Part shown: piece by piece, positions 775 to 17,078 of the stretch
Layout of the letters: each line of letters begins with the position of its first letter
How positions within the stretch are numbered: position 1 is the stretch's first letter
NCBI GenBank assembly: GCA_944322565.1
Contig: CALUPG010000002.1
Location: forward strand, 208,522-272,521
Origin: an uncultured Bacteroidales bacterium
Lineage (GTDB): Bacteria; Bacteroidota; Bacteroidia; Bacteroidales; UBA932
Length of the DNA stretch: 64,000 nucleotides
Direction: 5' to 3'
Translations under genes and position numbers: made by a program
Notes under the pieces: generated by a model
The model's database searches: none
The model's input: only the letters and a program-made list of their open reading frames with translations
Told to the model about the DNA's origin: nothing

Positions 775-2106
775 TTAATTATATCGTGGTTTCTGGAACC
801 ATAGGTCATGTATGTTGAATCCTACTGAAAATGACACATACCTCTCCCTCACCATACTGTTCCTCAGACTTCCCCTCTGTCCGAAATCAACACCGACAGT
901 AATTCCGTTATACCATCTGAACACAGGCAATGTCACACCGAGCGTTATGCCGAATGAGTTCACCACATTGCCGTCAAACAGATAATATGATGTGTCATAA
1001 TATGCACCCGCCCTGTATGCGCAACGGCGCAGGTAATATCTGATGTCATTCCTGTTCGGGACTATCTCAAATCCCGCCCTGACCGAATGCGATACAGTTG
1101 ATGTGAACACCGAACTGCCGTCGGCTGAAAATCCGGGCCTGCTTTCCATCCCCGTATTGCGCCAGTCGGACATGAGGTAGTTGACCTCGGCATTCCACTT
1201 GTCGCCTCCTTTCAAAGAGACTCCTACACCTATTTCATCCCCGAATTTTATACCGTCAGCCGCATCAAGATGATTCACATTGTTTCTCAAAGTATCGGTT
1301 ATCTCCGAGGTATTCGCATAACTGTATTCGGTAAGGCGTCCCCTTACATTTGTCCTGAGCCTGTATGTGGCTCCGACAGTCAATGAAAGGTTGTTTCCGA
1401 GAGGCTGTTCGTACTGAAGCCCGAACTTTCCGGTATATCCCCTGAGAAGCAGATTATATCCGTTGTTGTCAGTCCTGTAGGAATCATCTTCGAAAGCCAT
1501 GTTGTAGACCTTGTCAAGAGAACCGAAATAATATATGAATTCAGCCCCGAGGGACAGCCTTCTCCAGAAAGTGACGGCACCGCCTGCAAACAGCTGATAA
1601 ATGCTGCCTTCTCCGTAATTGCTCAACGCGACATTGCCTGTATTGCCCACTATGTCCTGATCCGTGATGATGGATGAAAACTGATATCCTATGTCACTGA
1701 ACGGGGTGATTCCCACCATAAATGCGGATGACTTGTATATCGGAAAGCTTATTACAAAGTCGTGGATATTGAACGTATTGTTCCCGGAAATCAGTTTGTT
1801 TCCGTCTATGTTCTGCCTGTATATGGTATTTGATTCGGAGAGTCCGAAATCTGCCATGAAAGAAAGGGAATCCCTTGCCGTCAGGGATGCAGGATTCACT
1901 ATGTTTATGAAACGTTTGCTGCGGTTGGCTATACCGACACCTCCCATGCTCCGGTTATATGCTGTCCCTTCTTTTGTAAGATTCCCTATACCATAAATGG
2001 AATATGGTGAAAATGAACCGTATGCCCCATTTTCCTGACTATATGCCAAAGATGTACACAGAAGTAGAGTGCACAATAAGAATATTCTTAAAATAATCCT
2101 ATACAT
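775..2106 (-). CDS. Outer-membrane beta-barrel protein (FadL/TodX-like transport family)
   Basis: 443-aa ORF with signal peptide (..SLAYS|QE), GMGG-like N-terminal motif (RSMGGVGIA), alternating amphipathic strands and an aromatic C-terminus. Confidence 0.65.
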   Translation of the reverse strand: MYRIILRIFLLCTLLLCTSLAYSQENGAYGSFSPYSIYGIGNLTKEGTAYNRSMGGVGIANRSKRFINIVNPASLTARDSLSFMADFGLSESNTIYRQNIDGNKLISGNNTFNIHDFVISFPIYKSSAFMVGITPFSDIGYQFSSIITDQDIVGNTGNVALSNYGEGSIYQLFAGGAVTFWRRLSLGAEFIYYFGSLDKVYNMAFEDDSYRTDNNGYNLLLRGYTGKFGLQYEQPLGNNLSLTVGATYRLRTNVRGRLTEYSYANTSEITDTLRNNVNHLDAADGIKFGDEIGVGVSLKGGDKWNAEVNYLMSDWRNTGMESRPGFSADGSSVFTSTVSHSVRAGFEIVPNRNDIRYYLRRCAYRAGAYYDTSYYLFDGNVVNSFGITLGVTLPVFRWYNGITVGVDFGQRGSLRNSMVRERYVSFSVGFNIHDLWFQKPRYN

Positions 2107-2863: not shown

Positions 2864-5800
2864 TCAAGCAAGTTTTTTCAATGCATTGTATGCGCTGACT
2901 ACCGAAGGAATATTTCTGACCACAAGGCGCAATCTGTTGTCAGGCTGCTTGAGTTCAAATATCCTTGAATTTCTGTTCACGGCATCAAGCACATCTGAAA
3001 ATTTCCTTGACCTGTAATATTTTGAAAGTGGATTCATGATAAAGAAAGCTATCATTATACCGTTCTTTATTATGATTTTCTCAAAGCCCAGTCTCTCTCC
3101 AAGATTCCTTATCTTCACTATATCGAAGAGTCTGGATGTCTCTTCCGGCATCCTTCCGAACCTGTCTTCCATTCTCTGCCTCATCCTTTCTATTTCCCTG
3201 TCGTCAGAAATAGAATCAAGTTCTTTGTATATCCTTATCTTTTCAGAGGATACATTGATGTAACTGTCCGGAATCAATGCCTCGAGGTCAGTGTCTACCA
3301 TACAGTCAGATACGTATGTGTCAGCCTTTGAGGAAGCGGCAATTCCCGTCTCCACGCCAAGTTCTTCCATGGCTTCCGACAATATCTTCTGATATGTCTC
3401 GAGCCCCATGTCTGATATGAACCCGCTCTGTTCGGCGCCGAGCAAATTGCCGGCTCCCCTTATGTCGAGGTCCTGCATGGCTATGTTGAATCCGCTTCCG
3501 AGATCGGAGAATGCTTCTATTGCCTTGAGCCTCCGTCTGGCATCATCTGTCATTGAAGTCATCGGAGGTACGACAAGATAGCAGAATGCCTTCTTGTTGG
3601 AGCGTCCCACTCTTCCCCTGAGCTGATGAAGGTCACTCAGCCCTATGTTCTGGGCCTGATTGATGATGATGGTATTGGCATTCGGTATGTCAAGACCGTT
3701 CTCGATGATTGTAGTGCACAGCAGAAGGTCATAGTCACCGGCCATAAAGTCAAGAATCTTGTTTTCAAGTATCTTTGGTTCCATCTGACCATGAGCCACA
3801 CATATCTTCATGTCGGGTATCATCCTGTGCAGGATATCAGCTATCGACTGAAGTTCCTCCACCCTGTTATGGACGAAGAATACCTGCCCTCCCCTGTTGA
3901 GTTCATAATTTATGATGCCCTTTATCTCATCGTTGTCAAAAAGCATTATTTCCGTCTGCACAGGTATCCTGTTCGGAGGAGGAGTATTTATTATGGAAAG
4001 ATCGCGGGCTCCGAGAAGGGAGAACTGCAGCGTCCTCGGTATCGGTGTGGCCGTAAGTGTAAGCGTGTCGACGGAAAGCTTCATCTGTTTCAACTTTTCC
4101 TTCGCACTTACTCCGAATTTCTGTTCTTCGTCTATTATCAGAAGACCCAGGTCCTTGAATTCAAATCCTTTTCCGAGGAGCTTGTGTGTTCCTATCACTA
4201 TGTCAAGTGTGCCTTTTCTGAGTCTTTCCTGAATCTCAGATATTTCCTTGGATGTCCTCAGGCGGCTTACATAGTCTATAGAACAGGGAAAATCCTTCAG
4301 TCTTCCTGAAAATGTATTGAAGTGCTGCAGTGCCAATATAGTTGTGGGGACAAGTACAGCCACCTGCTTGCTGTCAGCCACTGCCTTGAATGCAGCCCTT
4401 ACTGCAACTTCTGTTTTCCCGAAGCCTACATCACCGCATACAAGCCTGTCCATGGGACAATCATCCTCCATGTCATGTTTCACTGCCTTCACAGCCTTTT
4501 CCTGATCAGGTGTATCCTCATACATGAACGAAGACTCAAGCTCCTCCTGAAGATATGAGTCAGGAGAGAAAGCAAAGCCTTTGGCAGCCTTTCTCTTGGC
4601 ATAGAGCTGAATGAGTTCCTTGGCTATGTCCTTGACTTTTGACTTGGTGCTGCTTTTGAGATTCTGCCAGGTCTTAGAGCCGAGTTTGTTGATTTTTGGA
4701 GGTTCGGAATCCCTTGACTTATATCTTGATATCTTGTGCAGGGCATGTACAGACACAAAGACCGTATCATTGTCCTTATATGATATCTTCACCACTTCAT
4801 GCACCCTTCCCTTGTCATCCTTCATCTTTACGAGACCTCCGAAAATTCCTATACCATAGTCTATATGGACCACATAGTCTCCTATATTGAATGCCGTCAG
4901 GTCATTGATGGTGAGCTGTTCGCTCTTCTCGACAGTTCTTCTGATGCTTACTCTGTGGAATCTGTCGAAAATCTCATGGTCAGAATAACAGCATATCCTG
5001 TCCTCATTGTCAATGAAGCCGCTGTGAATATTTCTTCCTGAACGGAATTCCGGCAAAAGTCCGCTGCTCTGGGACAGGATGGAACGCAGGCGCTCAAGCT
5101 GCGATTCCTTCTCCCCGAAGATATACACCTTATATCCGGATTCCATTTTATCCCTTATATCTGCGGCAAGCAAGTCAAAATTCTTATTGAACGAAGGCTG
5201 AGGGGCAATATTGAATTTTATCACATCCTTGTCACGCACAGATACAGGGGTATCAGTGAAGACATGCCGGAAAGAAAGCAGTGAATCGAAGAAAGGCCGG
5301 TCTCTGTACATGTCTGAGGAATCCAGCCATACCGTACTTCCTTCGGGAAGCCTTTCTCCTATAAGTGACTCAGCATTGCCGTCAGCAGATGTGAAATCCG
5401 GAAAAATCTCAGCTTCATCAGCTTTAGCGACTGACAGCTGGGTATTGCAGTCAAAGACATTGATACTTTCTATCTCATCACCGAAAAATCCTATCCTGTA
5501 AGGATTGTTGTACGAATATGAGAATATGTCTATGATTCCGCCCCTTACCGCAAACTGTCCCGGAGAAGAGACAAAGTCCACCCTCTCGAATCCTTTTGAA
5601 AAAAGAGATTCTATGATGGCATCATGATTGATTTCTTCCCCTGTTTTCAGTCTCAACACTTCCGCACCGATTTTCCGGGCATCGGGAATACCTTCTTCAA
5701 GAGCCTGGGGATATGACACTATTACAAGCAGGTCATCCCCCGAATATTCGGCTATCCTGCCTATTGCCGCAGTTCTCTGGACCCTTAGGGAAGATCTGTA

Positions 5801-6055
5801 GTTGCTCCGTTCAAGACTTCTGCCGGAATCAGGAAGAAAGAACACCCTGTCCCCTTCTATAAGATTATAGAAATCAGCGGCACAATATTCGGCGGACTCA
5901 CGGTCAGGCAGCACCACCAGATTGATTCCTCTCTTCATCACGGAAGAAATGACAAACCATCTTGCGGAAAAGAAAAGTCCGGAACAATATATTTCATTAG
6001 AATCTTCCAGCCTTGCCGAAAGTTCTGAAGATGTCTTCTCGGATATGCCCATCAT
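2864..6055 (-). CDS. mfd: Transcription-repair coupling factor
   Basis: UvrB-homology region (GQFAVRGGIIDIFS), CarD-like RID (GDYVVHIDYGIG), helicase motifs GDVGFGKT, DEEQ, TATPIPRT and QLRGRVGR, and C-terminal TRCF domain. Confidence 0.97.
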   Translation of the reverse strand: MMGISEKTSSELSARLEDSNEIYCSGLFFSARWFVISSVMKRGINLVVLPDRESAEYCAADFYNLIEGDRVFFLPDSGRSLERSNYRSSLRVQRTAAIGRIAEYSGDDLLVIVSYPQALEEGIPDARKIGAEVLRLKTGEEINHDAIIESLFSKGFERVDFVSSPGQFAVRGGIIDIFSYSYNNPYRIGFFGDEIESINVFDCNTQLSVAKADEAEIFPDFTSADGNAESLIGERLPEGSTVWLDSSDMYRDRPFFDSLLSFRHVFTDTPVSVRDKDVIKFNIAPQPSFNKNFDLLAADIRDKMESGYKVYIFGEKESQLERLRSILSQSSGLLPEFRSGRNIHSGFIDNEDRICCYSDHEIFDRFHRVSIRRTVEKSEQLTINDLTAFNIGDYVVHIDYGIGIFGGLVKMKDDKGRVHEVVKISYKDNDTVFVSVHALHKISRYKSRDSEPPKINKLGSKTWQNLKSSTKSKVKDIAKELIQLYAKRKAAKGFAFSPDSYLQEELESSFMYEDTPDQEKAVKAVKHDMEDDCPMDRLVCGDVGFGKTEVAVRAAFKAVADSKQVAVLVPTTILALQHFNTFSGRLKDFPCSIDYVSRLRTSKEISEIQERLRKGTLDIVIGTHKLLGKGFEFKDLGLLIIDEEQKFGVSAKEKLKQMKLSVDTLTLTATPIPRTLQFSLLGARDLSIINTPPPNRIPVQTEIMLFDNDEIKGIINYELNRGGQVFFVHNRVEELQSIADILHRMIPDMKICVAHGQMEPKILENKILDFMAGDYDLLLCTTIIENGLDIPNANTIIINQAQNIGLSDLHQLRGRVGRSNKKAFCYLVVPPMTSMTDDARRRLKAIEAFSDLGSGFNIAMQDLDIRGAGNLLGAEQSGFISDMGLETYQKILSEAMEELGVETGIAASSKADTYVSDCMVDTDLEALIPDSYINVSSEKIRIYKELDSISDDREIERMRQRMEDRFGRMPEETSRLFDIVKIRNLGERLGFEKIIIKNGIMIAFFIMNPLSKYYRSRKFSDVLDAVNRNSRIFELKQPDNRLRLVVRNIPSVVSAYNALKKLA

Positions 6056-6136
6056 TTAACGGATATTGTTGACAACTTGTTGAAAACTCATAAAAAATAT
6101 GTTGAAAACCTGTTGATAAAGCATGAAATAAAAATT

Positions 6137-6144
6137 CAAAAATA
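6137..6144 (-). promoter_or_regulatory. Putative Bacteroidetes -7 promoter element for mfd
   Basis: TATTTTTG on the minus strand matches TAnnTTTG, ~80 nt upstream of the mfd ATG. Confidence 0.45.
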
Positions 6145-6341
6145 CATTATGAAATGAAAATAATCTTTACATACTCCGTTGAAATCAGAAATCAAAATTT
6201 ATCACAAACAATCTCTGAAAAGTTTCCATTATGGTTATCAACATTTCAGTAATATTATAATCAGTTATAAATCAGTATAATATAAATCTTATCAACATTT
6301 CAACACCGGTATAATCACAATAAAGAAAAATATAAAAAGAT

Positions 6342-6349
6342 TATATTTG
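6342..6349 (+). promoter_or_regulatory. Putative Bacteroidetes -7 promoter element for ruvB
   Basis: TATATTTG matches TAnnTTTG, 50 nt upstream of the ruvB ATG. Confidence 0.45.
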
Positions 6350-6398
6350 TATGTTTTTATGATGATGACCGCATGACTGCGGACAAAAAATTGACAAG

Positions 6399-7427
6399 AT
6401 GAACGGACATTTTGACCCCCATGATGTAAATTCGGACAAAGATAAGGAATTTGACGGAATCATAAGGCCTCAGGAACTGGAAGACTTCACCGGACAGGAA
6501 AAGACCGTGGCCAATCTGAAGATATTCATTAAAGCCGCCAAAATGAGAGGGGAGTCCCTTGATCATGTGCTCTTCCACGGGCCTCCGGGACTCGGAAAGA
6601 CTACTCTTGCGCATATCATCGCGAATGAACTTGGAGTCAGCATGAAGGTTACTTCAGGCCCGGTGCTGGACAAGCCGGGAGACCTTGCCGGACTTCTGAC
6701 TTCGCTTGAGGAGGGGGATGTGCTTTTTATCGACGAGATACACCGCCTTGCTCCGGAAGTCGAGGAATACCTCTATTCCGCGATGGAGGATTTTGTAATA
6801 GACATAATGATAGACAAGGGACCGGGTGCACGGTCTGTGCGGATTTCACTGAATCCTTTCACCCTTGTCGGGGCGACCACAAGAAGCGGTCTGCTTACTT
6901 CGCCTTTGAGAGCAAGGTTCGGAATTACCTGTGCACTTGAGTATTATGATACACCCACCCTTGTACATATTGTAAAGAGAAGCGCATCCATCCTTAAGAT
7001 AGGAATAGAAGAGGATGCCGCATACGAGATTGCACTCCGGAGCCGTGGAACACCGCGTATCGCCAATTCTCTGCTCAGGAGAGTAAGGGATTTCGCCCAG
7101 GTCATGGGCAACGGACATATTGACATTGCCATAGCTAAATATGCCCTTGATGCATTGAACATAGACAAGCGTGGACTTGATTCGATAGACAACAAGATAC
7201 TGAGGACCATAATCACAAAATTCAAAGGCGGTCCTGTCGGAGCAAACACCATAGCGACTGCAGTCGGTGAAGATCAGGGGACTCTTGAGGAAGTCTATGA
7301 GCCGTTCCTCATAAAGGAAGGCTTTATTGTCAGGACTCCAAGAGGCAGGGAGGCAACTGAACTTGCCTACAGTCATCTCGGGATAGAAATGTGTGGGACT
7401 CCCGAGCCTGATGCCACATTGTTTTAG
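6399..7427 (+). CDS. ruvB: Holliday junction branch migration helicase RuvB
   Basis: [44 protein letters not shown] and EPFLI...RTPRGR. Confidence 0.98.
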
Positions 7428-7450
7428 TGAGATTTTATCTGCATCATGAT

Positions 7451-8698
7451 ATGAGATTGCTTCCGTATATCATATTTACATTGGCGGCAATTGTCCTGTG
7501 CCATACCTCAGATGCCTGTACGGCTGTAATAATTTCCGGCAAAGTCACTGCCGATGGGCGTCCCCTTATGTGGAAGAACCGCGATTCCGGCTTTCCTGAC
7601 AACAATATAAGGCATTTCAAGGGAGAGATTCACTCGTTTGTGGGGCTTGTCAATTCCGGTTCTGAAGGCGGCGAGGTCTGGGCCGGTGTCAATACTGCGG
7701 GATTTGCAGTGATGAACACCGCATCATACTGTCTGAAGGATGACGATGTGCCTGCTTCACAAATGGACAGGGAGGGGAGAGTCATGTACAGGGCTCTTGA
7801 AATATGTTCCTCAATCGCTGATTTTGAACATTTTCTTGATACTTTGCATCGTCCGATGGGAGTTGAGGCTAATTTCGGATGTATTGATGCACATGGAGGT
7901 GCCGCATGGTATGAGACGGACAATGATTCATGGCATAAAATTGATGTCAACGGGAGCAGAGACGGTTTTGTCGTCGTCACCAATTTTTCTGTTTCCGGCC
8001 GTCCTTCCGGATGGAAAGGAGTGGAAAGATTCATGACTGCCCAGGCTGTTTTCAGTGAAATAAGGGACGAAGGTGCTCTGCCCGGAATATTGCCTTCTGA
8101 TATAATGAACAGACTTTCGAGGTCTTATCGTCACGAAGTGCTTGGGATAGACTTGATTAGGGATTCATCTGCATTTCTTTCAAATACATCGGGACTTTTC
8201 GTTGACCAGGATTTCATACCGAGAAGTTCCACTTCTGCATCAGTCATCATCAGCGGTGCTGCTTCCGGTGATAATCCGCTTTCCTGTGTGCTTTGGGGAG
8301 CCCTAGGTTATCCCTCATGTTCTGTACTTGTTCCCGTGCCGGTATCTGCCGATGACCATGTTCCTGATGCACTGAAATTTTCACCCGAGGAGTCTGACAG
8401 TACTTTCTGCGGTCTTTCCGCAATGCTCAAGAAGAATTTCATCTTCCGGTCTGATGTCAGCAGCATGTCTCATTATATGGACCTCAGGCCAGTGTTTGCC
8501 GGAGTTGGCGGATATCCGTCAATGCTGTCTTGCTGCAGGGAGGCAGAAAGCAAAATATATTCTCTCTTTTATCCTCTGTTTGCAGGATATGTCTGTGGAG
8601 CAGCAGGGGAGGAAGAGTATCTTTCATGTTATGATTCAATATCCGATTCATTTTATGGGATATATCTTGATTATTTTGAAGGTTATATACATCTTTAA
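7451..8698 (+). CDS. Exported Ntn-hydrolase (C45/acyltransferase-like)
   Basis: Signal peptide followed by CTAVIISG...DGRPLMWKNRD, with an N-terminal Cys nucleophile, and AGVNTAGFAVMN. Start placed at ATG 7451. Confidence 0.75.
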   Translation: MRLLPYIIFTLAAIVLCHTSDACTAVIISGKVTADGRPLMWKNRDSGFPDNNIRHFKGEIHSFVGLVNSGSEGGEVWAGVNTAGFAVMNTASYCLKDDDVPASQMDREGRVMYRALEICSSIADFEHFLDTLHRPMGVEANFGCIDAHGGAAWYETDNDSWHKIDVNGSRDGFVVVTNFSVSGRPSGWKGVERFMTAQAVFSEIRDEGALPGILPSDIMNRLSRSYRHEVLGIDLIRDSSAFLSNTSGLFVDQDFIPRSSTSASVIISGAASGDNPLSCVLWGALGYPSCSVLVPVPVSADDHVPDALKFSPEESDSTFCGLSAMLKKNFIFRSDVSSMSHYMDLRPVFAGVGGYPSMLSCCREAESKIYSLFYPLFAGYVCGAAGEEEYLSCYDSISDSFYGIYLDYFEGYIHL

Positions 8699-13998: not shown

Positions 13999-16080
13999 AT
14001 GGGCGGAATAAATTATGATATTATTGTAGTTGGAGGAGGCCATGCGGGTTGTGAGGCAGCGATGGCGGCGGCAAAGATGGGGTCTTCGGTGCTTCTTGTC
14101 ACAATGGACATGGGAAGGTTTGCCCAGATGTCGTGCAATCCTGCAGTAGGAGGTATTGCAAAAGGACAGATTGTCCGTGAGATTGACGCGCTCGGTGGTT
14201 ATACCGGCATTGTCACTGATGCATCTACGCTCCAGTTCAGGATGCTCAACAGGTCAAAAGGACCGGCCATGTGGAGTCCCCGTGCCCAATGCGACAAAAT
14301 GCATTTTAGCCTGAATTGGCGAAAATTGCTTGAAAGTAATTGTAAATTAGATATTTATCAAGATTCTGCAATTGATTTTCTTTTTGATGGTTCGCGTATT
14401 TCAGGGATTTGTACGACTACCGGTGCAATATTCAAATCTCAGGCAGTTATTCTTACTGCCGGGACTTTCCTTGACGGCCGTCTTTTCATCGGTAGGAACA
14501 GTTTTGAGGGAGGAAGGATAGGGGAGTTGTCATCACATGGACTTACCTCCCGTCTTGTCGAGATGGGAATAAGGACTGCGCGAATGAAGACAGGGACTCC
14601 TCCGCGAATTGACATCTCATCAGTTGACATATCCGGGTTACCTGTACAGGAAGGAGATTCTGAACCGGACAAATTTTCATACCTTCCTTTTCTGTCCACA
14701 GCCCAGAACGGAACTCCGCAGATGCCGTGCTATATTCTTCATACCAATCCTGAAGTTCATGATACCCTGCGCTCAGGATTCAAGGATTCACCGCTTTTTT
14801 CAGGAAAAATCACAGGCATAGGCCCAAGGTATTGTCCGAGTATAGAGGACAAGCTCCGTACTTTTGCTGACAAGGATTCACATCAGCTTTTCCTTGAGCC
14901 TGAAGGCAGATCAACCGGAGAATACTATCTTCAGGGATTTTCATCATCCCTTCCTCTTGAAGTTCAGATTGATGCTCTGCACAAGATAAAAGGTCTTGAA
15001 AATGTCAGGATATTCAGGCCGGCCTATGCAGTAGAATATGATTATTTTGACCCGACTCAGTTGAAGCCGACGCTTGAACTAAAGTCTATAGAAAATCTTT
15101 TCTTTGCTGGTCAGGTAAACGGTACTACAGGTTATGAGGAAGCTGCAGCCCAGGGGCTGATGGCCGGTATCAACGCTCATCTTAAAGTTAAGGGAAAAGA
15201 GCCGTTTGTCCTCAAGAGGGACCAGGCATATATCGGAGTTCTGATAGATGACCTGATAACCAAAGGTGTTGATGAACCATACAGGATGTTTACTTCCCGG
15301 GCTGAATACAGGATTCTTCTCAGACAGGACAATGCCGACATGAGGCTCACGCCCTTGTCATATAATATAGGTCTGGCTGACAAGTTCAGGTATGAATATA
15401 CAATGAAAAAATATGATTCTATATCCGGCCTCAATACTTTCTTCTCAGAAGTGTCGATTCATCCAGATATAGTCAACAGTTATCTTGCATCAGTGGATAC
15501 GGCTGCAATAGACTCCAAGAAGAAAATTTCAGACCTGGTAATAAGACCTCAAGTAAAATTATCGGATATATTTAATTTTGTTCCACGTGGAACTTTTCAA
15601 AGAAAAGGAATCGATATAGATGAAATTTTTTCCAGTCCATTGAAGAATATCTTTGGTGATATGAGATATAATGATATTCTTGCAAATATGGATTGTACCT
15701 GCTGTCATTCTGATTCTGCGTTGAATGGAGCCGTAAGTGTTTTGAAAAATAATACGGACTACCCTTTGTCAGAAATTAATGATGTCGATATGGACAGTCG
15801 TATTTTGAATATCTGCAGAAGAGAGATTCTAGAATCTTGTGAGATATCCATAAAATATAAAGGTTATATTGAAAGGGAACAAAAAATGGCGGACAAGATA
15901 ATGCGGCTTGAAAATCTTGCTATACCTGAGGATTTTGATTTTGATAAGGTGGAAAGCCTTTCGATTGAATGCCGTCAGAAACTCAAAAAATATTCCCCGA
16001 GGACCATTGCCCAGGCCTCGAGGATTTCCGGTGTCTCTCCTGCCGACATATCTGTGCTTCTTGTTTATTTTGGCAGATGA
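13999..16080 (+). CDS. mnmG: tRNA U34 modification enzyme MnmG (GidA), with a ~70-aa insertion
   Basis: [50 protein letters not shown] and SRAEYR. Confidence 0.97.
15579..15594. promoter_or_regulatory. parS site (ParB-binding palindrome) inside mnmG
   Basis: TGTTCCACGTGGAACT, with a perfect 14-bp palindromic core matching the parS consensus. Confidence 0.85.
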
Positions 16081-16110
16081 GCAGGGATTCAGGCAGGGAT
16101 ATTATCGGAT

Positions 16111-16323
16111 TTATTTCCTTTTGATAATGATGGTGATTACTCGTACTAATCCGTACAAGAATAGAATCCACCATATAATCTGATTGAACAAGGGCATTTC
16201 TGCTATGTCATTCTGTGAATATCCGAGATATAGGAAAATGCCTGAGAATACCATAATGAGGAGTGGAACAAGGAGTTTTATCATCCAGTGCATTCCTCTT
16301 TTTTTATTTTCTTGTGTTTCCAT
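16111..16323 (-). CDS. Small two-TM membrane protein, unknown function
   Basis: 70 aa with two hydrophobic helices and a basic C-terminus. Co-oriented downstream of ruvA and fills the gap to mnmG. Confidence 0.65.
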   Translation of the reverse strand: METQENKKRGMHWMIKLLVPLLIMVFSGIFLYLGYSQNDIAEMPLFNQIIWWILFLYGLVRVITIIIKRK

Positions 16324-16332
16324 GATTAATAT

Positions 16333-16348
16333 TGTTCCACGTGGAACC
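16333..16348. promoter_or_regulatory. parS site, intergenic
   Basis: TGTTCCACGTGGAACC between the ruvA stop and the small ORF start. Confidence 0.88.
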
Positions 16349-16349
16349 T

Positions 16350-16937
16350 TTATAGTTTTTTAAGAGCGAATTTGATGATAGATTCAAGGCTGGCCTCAGG
16401 ATTTTCTTTCATCACAGCGGATACTGCTTTATTTACATTGGCTTTGGTGAAACCAAGCAATACAAGTGCTGTTACAGCCTCTTCAGCTATTGCGTTGTTC
16501 TGTTGAGTGAGCATCAGTCCGGATTCGTTGCCGCTGCCTTTGACAATCTTGTCTTTCAGTTCAAGAATAAGTCTCTGGGCGCTTTTGAGACCGATGCCCT
16601 TTATGCTTTTTATCCTGTTGATGTCTTCGGCTATTATTGCGTTCCGGATTTCTTCAGATGACATTGAGGAGAGCATCATCCTTGCTGTGGCTGCGCCTAT
16701 TCCTGATACTCCTATCAGTAGTCTGAAAAGTTCCCGTTCCTCTTTGGTTCCGAAACCATAATAGAGTTCTTCATCCTCTCGAATGTAATGGTGAATGTAT
16801 ACCTTCACATCCTTTTTGTTTTCCAGCTGGCTGAATGTCTGCAGGGAAATCAGGATGTGATAACCTATTCCGCAACATTCAACAACAGCATCAGCGGGGG
16901 TAAGCTCTGCAATTTCACCTTTTATATATTCTATCAT
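16350..16937 (-). CDS. ruvA: Holliday junction DNA-binding protein RuvA
   Basis: MIEYIKG, GIGY, LIGVSGIG and IKGIGLKSAQRLILELKDK HhH motifs, and C-terminal ALVLLGF. Confidence 0.97.
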   Translation of the reverse strand: MIEYIKGEIAELTPADAVVECCGIGYHILISLQTFSQLENKKDVKVYIHHYIREDEELYYGFGTKEERELFRLLIGVSGIGAATARMMLSSMSSEEIRNAIIAEDINRIKSIKGIGLKSAQRLILELKDKIVKGSGNESGLMLTQQNNAIAEEAVTALVLLGFTKANVNKAVSAVMKENPEASLESIIKFALKKL

Positions 16938-17078
16938 TTGAGTATGGCGTTTATATTGGGCAAAATTATTAAAAAAATAATTATCATTTTAAAAATCATT
17001 TCCTCTGATGCCAACTGATTATAGTTTTTGTTAAATTTGCACGCTTAACAGGTGGTTGGTATCAATAGATTGTTGATT

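Follow-up and report, generated by a model that had tools for sequence, protein, structure and literature searches.

The mfd-ruvB intergenic region as the probable chromosomal replication origin of an uncultured gut Bacteroidales genome

The chromosomal replication origin of Escherichia coli, oriC, lies between mnmG (gidA) and mioC, and its DnaA boxes form two opposed groups whose ACA ends face outward. In Bacillus subtilis, the basal unwinding system (Richardson 2016/2019) is made up of DnaA-boxes 6 and 7, a G+C spacer, DnaA-trios and an A+T-rich element (PMC6669920, PMC8287927). Among the Bacteroidetes, a large distance between oriC and dnaA is common (PMC4755523, citing DoriC), and an example of a predicted oriC from this group is that of the large chromosome of Prevotella intermedia OMA14 (PMC4755523). 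The unwinding-module tables of Pelliciari et al. 2021 (PMC8287927 supplement), in which the G+C-rich gap averages 4 bp, include entries for Porphyromonas gingivalis W83 and Prevotella ruminicola 23. The box given there for Porphyromonas gingivalis is TTTTCAACA, which is also found at the locus described here, and a Maribacter entry has TTATCAACA as its standard motif (PMC8287927 supplement).

The DNA analysed here is a 64-kb stretch (the window) that corresponds to C2:208522-272521 in a 99%-complete Bacteroidales draft genome of 2.18 Mb in 19 contigs. An earlier note on the window had placed oriC between mfd and ruvB, and that placement is supported by the skew, the box cluster and the conservation described below. 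The mfd-ruvB intergenic region is 343 bp long and 75% A+T, and in the ORF list it is the sole sizeable non-coding gap at the strand switch (Table 1). Mfd was identified by the Pfam domains UvrB_inter, CarD_TRCF_RID, DEAD, Helicase_C and TRCF, and RuvB by RuvB_N, AAA_lid_4 and RuvB_C. Two further ORFs that neighbour the region, at 775-2106 (minus strand, 443 aa) and 7427-8698 (plus strand, 423 aa), had no Pfam match at E <= 0.001. The Bacteroidetes oriCs predicted in DoriC/Ori-Finder are likewise DnaA-box clusters located at a GC-skew transition and far from dnaA, but they differ in their flanking genes, which here are mfd and ruvB.

Table 1. Features of the candidate origin and its surroundings (positions are those of the window)
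Feature	Position	Strand	Remarks
mfd, transcription-repair coupling factor	2864-6055	minus	left flank; transcribed away from the candidate origin
Whole candidate oriC	6056-6398		box cluster, skew minimum, ORFs/Pfam and A+T content
Left array, four DnaA boxes	6067-6119	minus	ACA ends toward mfd
Left-array box TTGTCAACA	6067-6075	minus	forward-strand reading TGTTGACAA
Left-array box TTTTCAACA	6078-6086	minus	forward-strand reading TGTTGAAAA
Left-array box TTTTCAACA	6100-6108	minus	forward-strand reading TGTTGAAAA
Left-array box TTATCAACA	6111-6119	minus	forward-strand reading TGTTGATAA
A+T-rich spacer between the opposed box groups	6120-6234		holds the candidate mfd promoter
Candidate mfd promoter, TAnnTTTG-type -7 motif	6137-6144	minus	
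Single DnaA box TTATCAACA	6235-6243	plus	
Least stable duplex stretch, candidate unwinding element	6244-6288		nearest-neighbour dG
Tandem DnaA boxes TTATCAACA + TTTCAACA	6289-6305	plus	ACA ends toward ruvB
Second tandem box TTTCAACA	6298-6305	plus	abuts TTATCAACA at 6289
G+C spacer CCGG	6306-6309		4 bp
Ten consecutive NAN triplets, second candidate unwinding element	6310-6339	plus	period-3 adenines
Candidate ruvB promoter TATATTTGTA, TAnnTTTG-type -7 element	6342-6351	plus	
ruvB	6399-7427	plus	right flank; transcribed away from the candidate origin
parS-like palindrome GTTCCACGTGGAAC, copy 1	15580-15593		
parS-like palindrome GTTCCACGTGGAAC, copy 2	16334-16347		

As the assembly consists of 19 contigs, strand composition was read by contig and not as one global curve. 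The cumulative G-C curve of contig C2 is a clean V that descends to -5078 at 215 kb and then rises. This minimum, at C2:215000, corresponds to window position ~6480, and the 5-kb GC skew is -0.079 on the left of the mfd-ruvB locus and +0.084 on the right. As the locus is also a gene-strand switch, skew was computed for each gene strand. Plus-strand genes have a skew of -0.001 to the left of the locus and +0.095 to the right, minus-strand genes have -0.076 and +0.005, respectively, and at third codon positions the shift across the locus is ~0.19 in both gene-strand classes. Because the shift persists when the gene strand is fixed, it goes with the side of the locus, which is how replication bias behaves. 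Outward gene orientation is favoured on both sides, with 86 minus-strand and 69 plus-strand genes on the left and 24 plus-strand and 14 minus-strand genes on the right. An opposite, terminus-like skew switch was found in contig C3 at ~117 kb. A small second V at ~21 kb in the same contig was rejected as an origin, as it is associated with a low-G+C island that lies at the contig end and lacks boxes. The island (C3:1-20000) has a G+C content of 34-42%, compared with ~50% for the genome, and a negative skew of its own, and is probably horizontally acquired DNA.

The earlier note had called for a genome-scale skew curve, and the minimum that fell on the locus in contig C2 was found again in the complete genomes of two relatives in the family, G206 and G244. 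Coarse sampling of both whole genomes placed the main minus-to-plus switch at the cluster upstream of ruvB, with isolated 20-kb samples of opposite sign present. In G206 (a single contig of 2,229,011 bp), the coarse samples put the switch at 660-770 kb, and the fine skew curve has a local minimum at 672,000, where boxes begin at 672,020 and ruvB starts at 672,437. In G244 (a single contig of 2,657,245 bp), the skew minimum is at 17,000, minus-strand ruvB occupies 15,201-16,178 and the eight boxes are found at ~16,257-16,650. The skew minimum and the box cluster therefore meet in three genomes, at a resolution of 1 kb. The precision with which skew places an origin is about 1-5 kb and not a single base.

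A position away from dnaA, as the earlier note had proposed, is normal for Bacteroidetes (PMC4755523). In this genome, dnaA is in contig C3 at 153.3 kb, which is 36 kb from the cumulative skew maximum (~117 kb) and on the terminus side. In G206 it is 596 kb from the origin, and in G244 it is found in the terminus half, at 1.63 Mb. Upstream of dnaA, where boxes might serve autoregulation, only scattered single matches and no cluster were found. The parS sites of bacterial chromosomes are usually origin-proximal. Two copies of the parS-like palindrome GTTCCACGTGGAAC, the only ones in the genome, are 754 bp apart and 9-10 kb to the right of the mfd-ruvB region, and this fits the usual placement that the earlier note had invoked.

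The boxes that the earlier note had reported as starting at 6067, 6078, 6100, 6111, 6235 and 6289 are all present, and the 11/22/11 bp spacing of the box starts in the left array was recovered from the sequence. With the second box of the tandem, seven TTNTCAACA-type boxes lie within 6067-6305, with four on the minus strand opposed to three on the plus strand. The 9-mer TTATCAACA differs from the canonical TTATCCACA at one position and so passes the published box rule (<=2 mismatches). All three copies of TTATCAACA in the window are in the mfd-ruvB gap (0.58 expected), as are six of the 10 matches to TTNTCAACA (2.93 expected window-wide), and the gap contains the densest TTNTCAACA cluster in the genome, with 6 per 300-400 bp. 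No cluster of canonical TTATCCACA was found anywhere in the whole assembly. In a region that is 75% A+T, such a cluster might be a chance pile-up of A+T-rich words in promoter-rich intergenic DNA, but six to seven boxes in ~240 bp contrast with a genome-wide TTNTCAACA background of 0.21 per kb and with <=3 in any other cluster, and the positions of the boxes have been kept across genera. A chance origin, to which we assign virtually no probability, is refuted by these counts and this conservation.

Boxes of the TTWTCAACA type are found within 600 bp before ruvB in 12 of the 14 family genomes, and mfd is divergent from ruvB in 11 of the 14. When 80 public RuvB loci were examined, a box cluster directly upstream of ruvB was seen only in the three closest; in one Marinifilum locus a cluster is ~1 kb off. 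Of 80 other Bacteroidota loci, 76 did not show the mfd-ruvB pairing upstream of ruvB. The decisive comparison is with the congener G257, in which the sites that align with the left array are TGTTGATAA, TGTGGATAA, TGTGGATTT and TGTGGATAA, which are canonical boxes, and the sequence that aligns with the right tandem is TTATCCACATTTCCACA. Perfect TTATCCACA boxes of the E. coli type are thus aligned with sites where the window carries the A spelling. As the orthologous sites are canonical, we conclude that the boxes in the window are DnaA boxes, and that C and A at box position 6 exchange at orthologous sites between congeners. The site aligned with the box at 6235 has been kept as T(A/T)TC(A/C)ACA in L002, L003 and L004, and the tandem boxes at 6289-6305 are the most conserved non-coding block among the relatives. 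Across the order, the exact tandem TTWTCMACATWTYMACA was present in 27 of 201 genomes, compared with ~17 for the reversed control, and was mostly not accompanied by a cluster. It was rejected as an order-wide origin signature.

Motifs of the type TAnnTTTG, which we take to be the Bacteroides -7 promoter consensus, are present in both orientations (Table 1). The plus-strand element, TATATTTGTA, is invariant in all aligned close relatives, and a -7 element is found 29-57 bp before ruvB in 13 of the 14 family genomes; TATATTTGTA is likely to be the ruvB promoter. With a second motif at 6137 on the minus strand, both flanking genes are probably transcribed out of the origin, and the left box array would be in the mfd leader, downstream of the candidate promoter of this gene and ahead of its start codon.

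The location of these candidate motifs (6137 and 6342) within the region, and of the left array between one of them and the start codon of mfd, is what would be expected if the cluster were a DnaA operator or titration site (datA-like, or controlling mfd and ruvB) close to the true origin, and a skew resolution of only a few kb leaves room for such an arrangement. However, there is no other sizeable gap or box cluster near the skew switch, and in G206 and G244 the skew minimum again falls within 1 kb of the cluster. A regulatory role is also compatible with an origin and so is no true alternative to it, and we consider an operator or titration site alone improbable. In the preferred reading, an origin that includes both candidate divergent promoters, occupancy by DnaA may also modulate transcription of mfd and ruvB. 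The neighbouring genes are both repair genes, and ruvB belongs to the predicted SOS regulon of some Bacteroidetes species (PMC8565304), so the repeats might instead bind a transcription factor other than DnaA, such as an SOS-type repressor. The LexA motifs published for Bacteroidetes are GGA-N5-TCC and CTAA-N5-TTAG (PMC8565304), and both are absent from 6056-6398. An SOS/LexA operator was rejected on this basis, which removes the obvious repair-regulon alternative. Binding of any other non-DnaA factor is likewise very hard to reconcile with the orthologous sites of the congener, which are perfect DnaA boxes, and with 9-mers that are non-palindromic and phased at 11 bp like DnaA arrays, and we regard it as highly unlikely.

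The right-hand end of the DnaA-box cluster had been likened in the earlier note to the B. subtilis unwinding site. Boxes in tandem, a 4-bp G+C spacer and an A+T-rich tract bear this likeness out. It does not extend to trios on the expected strand. Like incC of B. subtilis, the locus has an abutting 9-mer and 8-mer (TTATCAACA-TTTCAACA here and TTATCCACA-AATCCACA there), a 4-bp G+C spacer (CCGG here and GGCC there) and an A+T-rich tract that starts 12 bp after the first box in both. This distance, made up of the 8-bp second box and CCGG, is within the rules of Pelliciari et al. 2021, which allow <=2 mismatches in the box, <=4 in an optional tandem box and a spacer of <=16 bp. CCGG is followed by a tract (6310-6360) that is 88% A+T, in agreement with the earlier note. 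In relatives, the spacer at the same place is GTCC, GCGC, GCTA, GGCT or CATC.

The locus differs from incC in having A at box position 6, in being away from dnaA and in its trios. The trio rule, for which the strand convention was taken from the B. subtilis row of the PMC8287927 supplement, is (.A.){3,}, that is NAN and ideally 3'-GAT-5', on the strand complementary to 5'-TTATCCACA-3'. Next to the tandem boxes, <=2 trios were found on that strand where the rule needs >=3, and the earlier note, too, had seen no clean DnaA-trios. After the box at 6235, there is a minimal run of three trios on the strand expected from B. subtilis, with a 5-nt spacer. Beyond CCGG, ten consecutive NAN triplets (TAT AAT CAC AAT AAA GAA AAA TAT AAA AAG) place period-3 adenines on the box-bearing strand, opposite to the DnaA-trios of B. 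subtilis. At least five in-phase NAN triplets are found at the same place in G006, G257, L002, L003, L004 and G219 (where the spacer is 3 nt), and the flanking letters around the conserved triplets vary among these six relatives. The period-3 signal may stem from common descent, from contacts that DnaA makes with the other strand or from some further constraint.

Duplex stability predicts an easily melted A+T-rich element next to the boxes. Measured as nearest-neighbour dG, 40-mers in the window have a mean of -55.7 kcal/mol (sd 4.3). Only one 40-mer of the window is less stable than that at 6252-6292, which has -38.0 kcal/mol, and 6320-6359 has a value of -39.0. The stretch between the single box and the tandem boxes also carries a direct repeat, ATCAGT(T)ATAA.

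With E. coli oriC, the locus shares opposed box groups with outward ACA ends, as in R1 and R4, an 11-bp phasing that leaves 2 bp between neighbouring boxes, an A+T-rich element beyond one of the outer boxes, a dnaA gene that is not adjacent and mnmG within 10 kb. It differs in the spelling of the boxes at position 6 and, unlike E. coli oriC, contains neither GATC sites (for Dam/SeqA control) nor a visible 13-mer repeat family in 6056-6398.

The C-to-A change at box position 6 that the earlier note had pointed out is not unusual, and boxes with A at this position are already listed in DoriC-derived tables. The genome-wide count of spellings proposed there gave 153 for TTNTCAACA and 156 for TTNTCCACA. 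As the two are equally frequent, the A spelling cannot be put down to base composition. When genomes were searched for two boxes 2 bp apart (TTWTCMACA-NN-TTWTCMACA), 40 such phased pairs were found in 31 of 251 Bacteroidales genomes, against 8 control matches, and these comprise 62 boxes with A at position 6 (A6) and 18 with C (C6), or 78% A6. In other classes of the phylum, 113 phased pairs include 59 A6 and 167 C6 boxes (26% A6), and none were found in ~57 Bacteroidia genomes outside Bacteroidales. The A spelling thus prevails in Bacteroidales at large and does not set this organism apart.

Three further observations concern other genomes. A TTTTCCACA-AG-TTTTCCACA pair is found in most genomes of family f164, which belongs to the other classes of the phylum, once in most of them and twice in a few and with essentially no control matches; it looks like a conserved origin signature. 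The 4.4-Mb genome G367 contains 15 scattered 2-bp-spaced pairs on several contigs, far above any other genome, and these may represent a dispersed repeat with DnaA boxes in it. Near-identical DnaA-box clusters are present on two short contigs of a Bacteroidales genome (G085:C261:1760-1914 and G085:C288:2909-3063), and could mean that strains differ, that the origin region has been duplicated or that the genome has a second replicon.

Domain IV of the DnaA of this genome, which the earlier note had suggested inspecting, was compared with the contact residues listed in PMC5043019. In E. coli numbering, Arg399, Asp433, His434, Leu438 and His439 are retained, and Pro423, Arg432 and Thr435 are replaced by Ser, Lys and Ala, respectively. 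Residue 435 is Ala in nine and Ser in two (G006 and G257) of 11 genomes from the same family, Ala in 26 and Ser in three of 29 Bacteroidales genomes from different families, and Ser in 22 and Thr in seven of 29 genomes from the rest of the phylum. Residue 423 is Ser, Ala or Asp in the 11 family genomes, Ala or Ser in 24 of the 29 Bacteroidales genomes and Lys in nearly all of the 29 from the rest of the phylum. In these sequences, the A spelling in Bacteroidales coincides with an order-wide change of Thr/Ser435 to Ala in DnaA. This coincidence is essentially one evolutionary event and not a replicated correlation. Clean covariation between residue 435 and box spelling was not found inside the family, where G257 (Ser435) has mostly C6 boxes, G006 (Ser435) has A6 boxes and genomes with Ala435, such as G152, mix both. 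Lineages with Ser435 thus also tolerate A6. A shifted or relaxed preference of Bacteroidales DnaA at position 6, A for C, linked to the changes in the DNA-reading helix, is a possibility that we put forward only tentatively. If true, origin finders tuned to TTATCCACA would under-score Bacteroidales origins, and a single DnaA residue would be open to test as a specificity switch. Within the literature searched, there was no experimental work on the specificity of DnaA for its boxes in Bacteroidales, and the 9-mer itself turned up only in primers and in unrelated sequences.

The motif cluster, its uniqueness in the genome, its conservation, the orthology of its sites to canonical boxes and the switch in strand composition in three genomes are all direct observations. 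We conclude that, with high probability, the chromosome of this Bacteroidales genome has its single replication origin in the mfd-ruvB intergenic region. By analogy with known origins, DnaA would bind the two opposed groups of 9-mer boxes, namely the four minus-strand boxes in 11-bp phase on the left and the single box and tandem pair on the right. A DnaA oligomer would then open either 6244-6288 or, behind CCGG, 6310-6360, both of which face plus-strand boxes. Forks fired from this site would leave bidirectionally, co-directional with mfd to the left and ruvB to the right.

The oriC described here is very probably an ordinary, essential element, with a distance from dnaA and an A spelling that are normal for the group. 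Locating it fixes the replichore layout for an uncultured gut Bacteroidales lineage and provides a reference point for coverage-based estimates of growth rate, and in the family of this genome ruvB and mfd can be used as origin indicator genes. The wider point is a modest one: the association of A6 with the change of Thr/Ser435 to Ala offers a testable hypothesis on how initiator specificity may drift.
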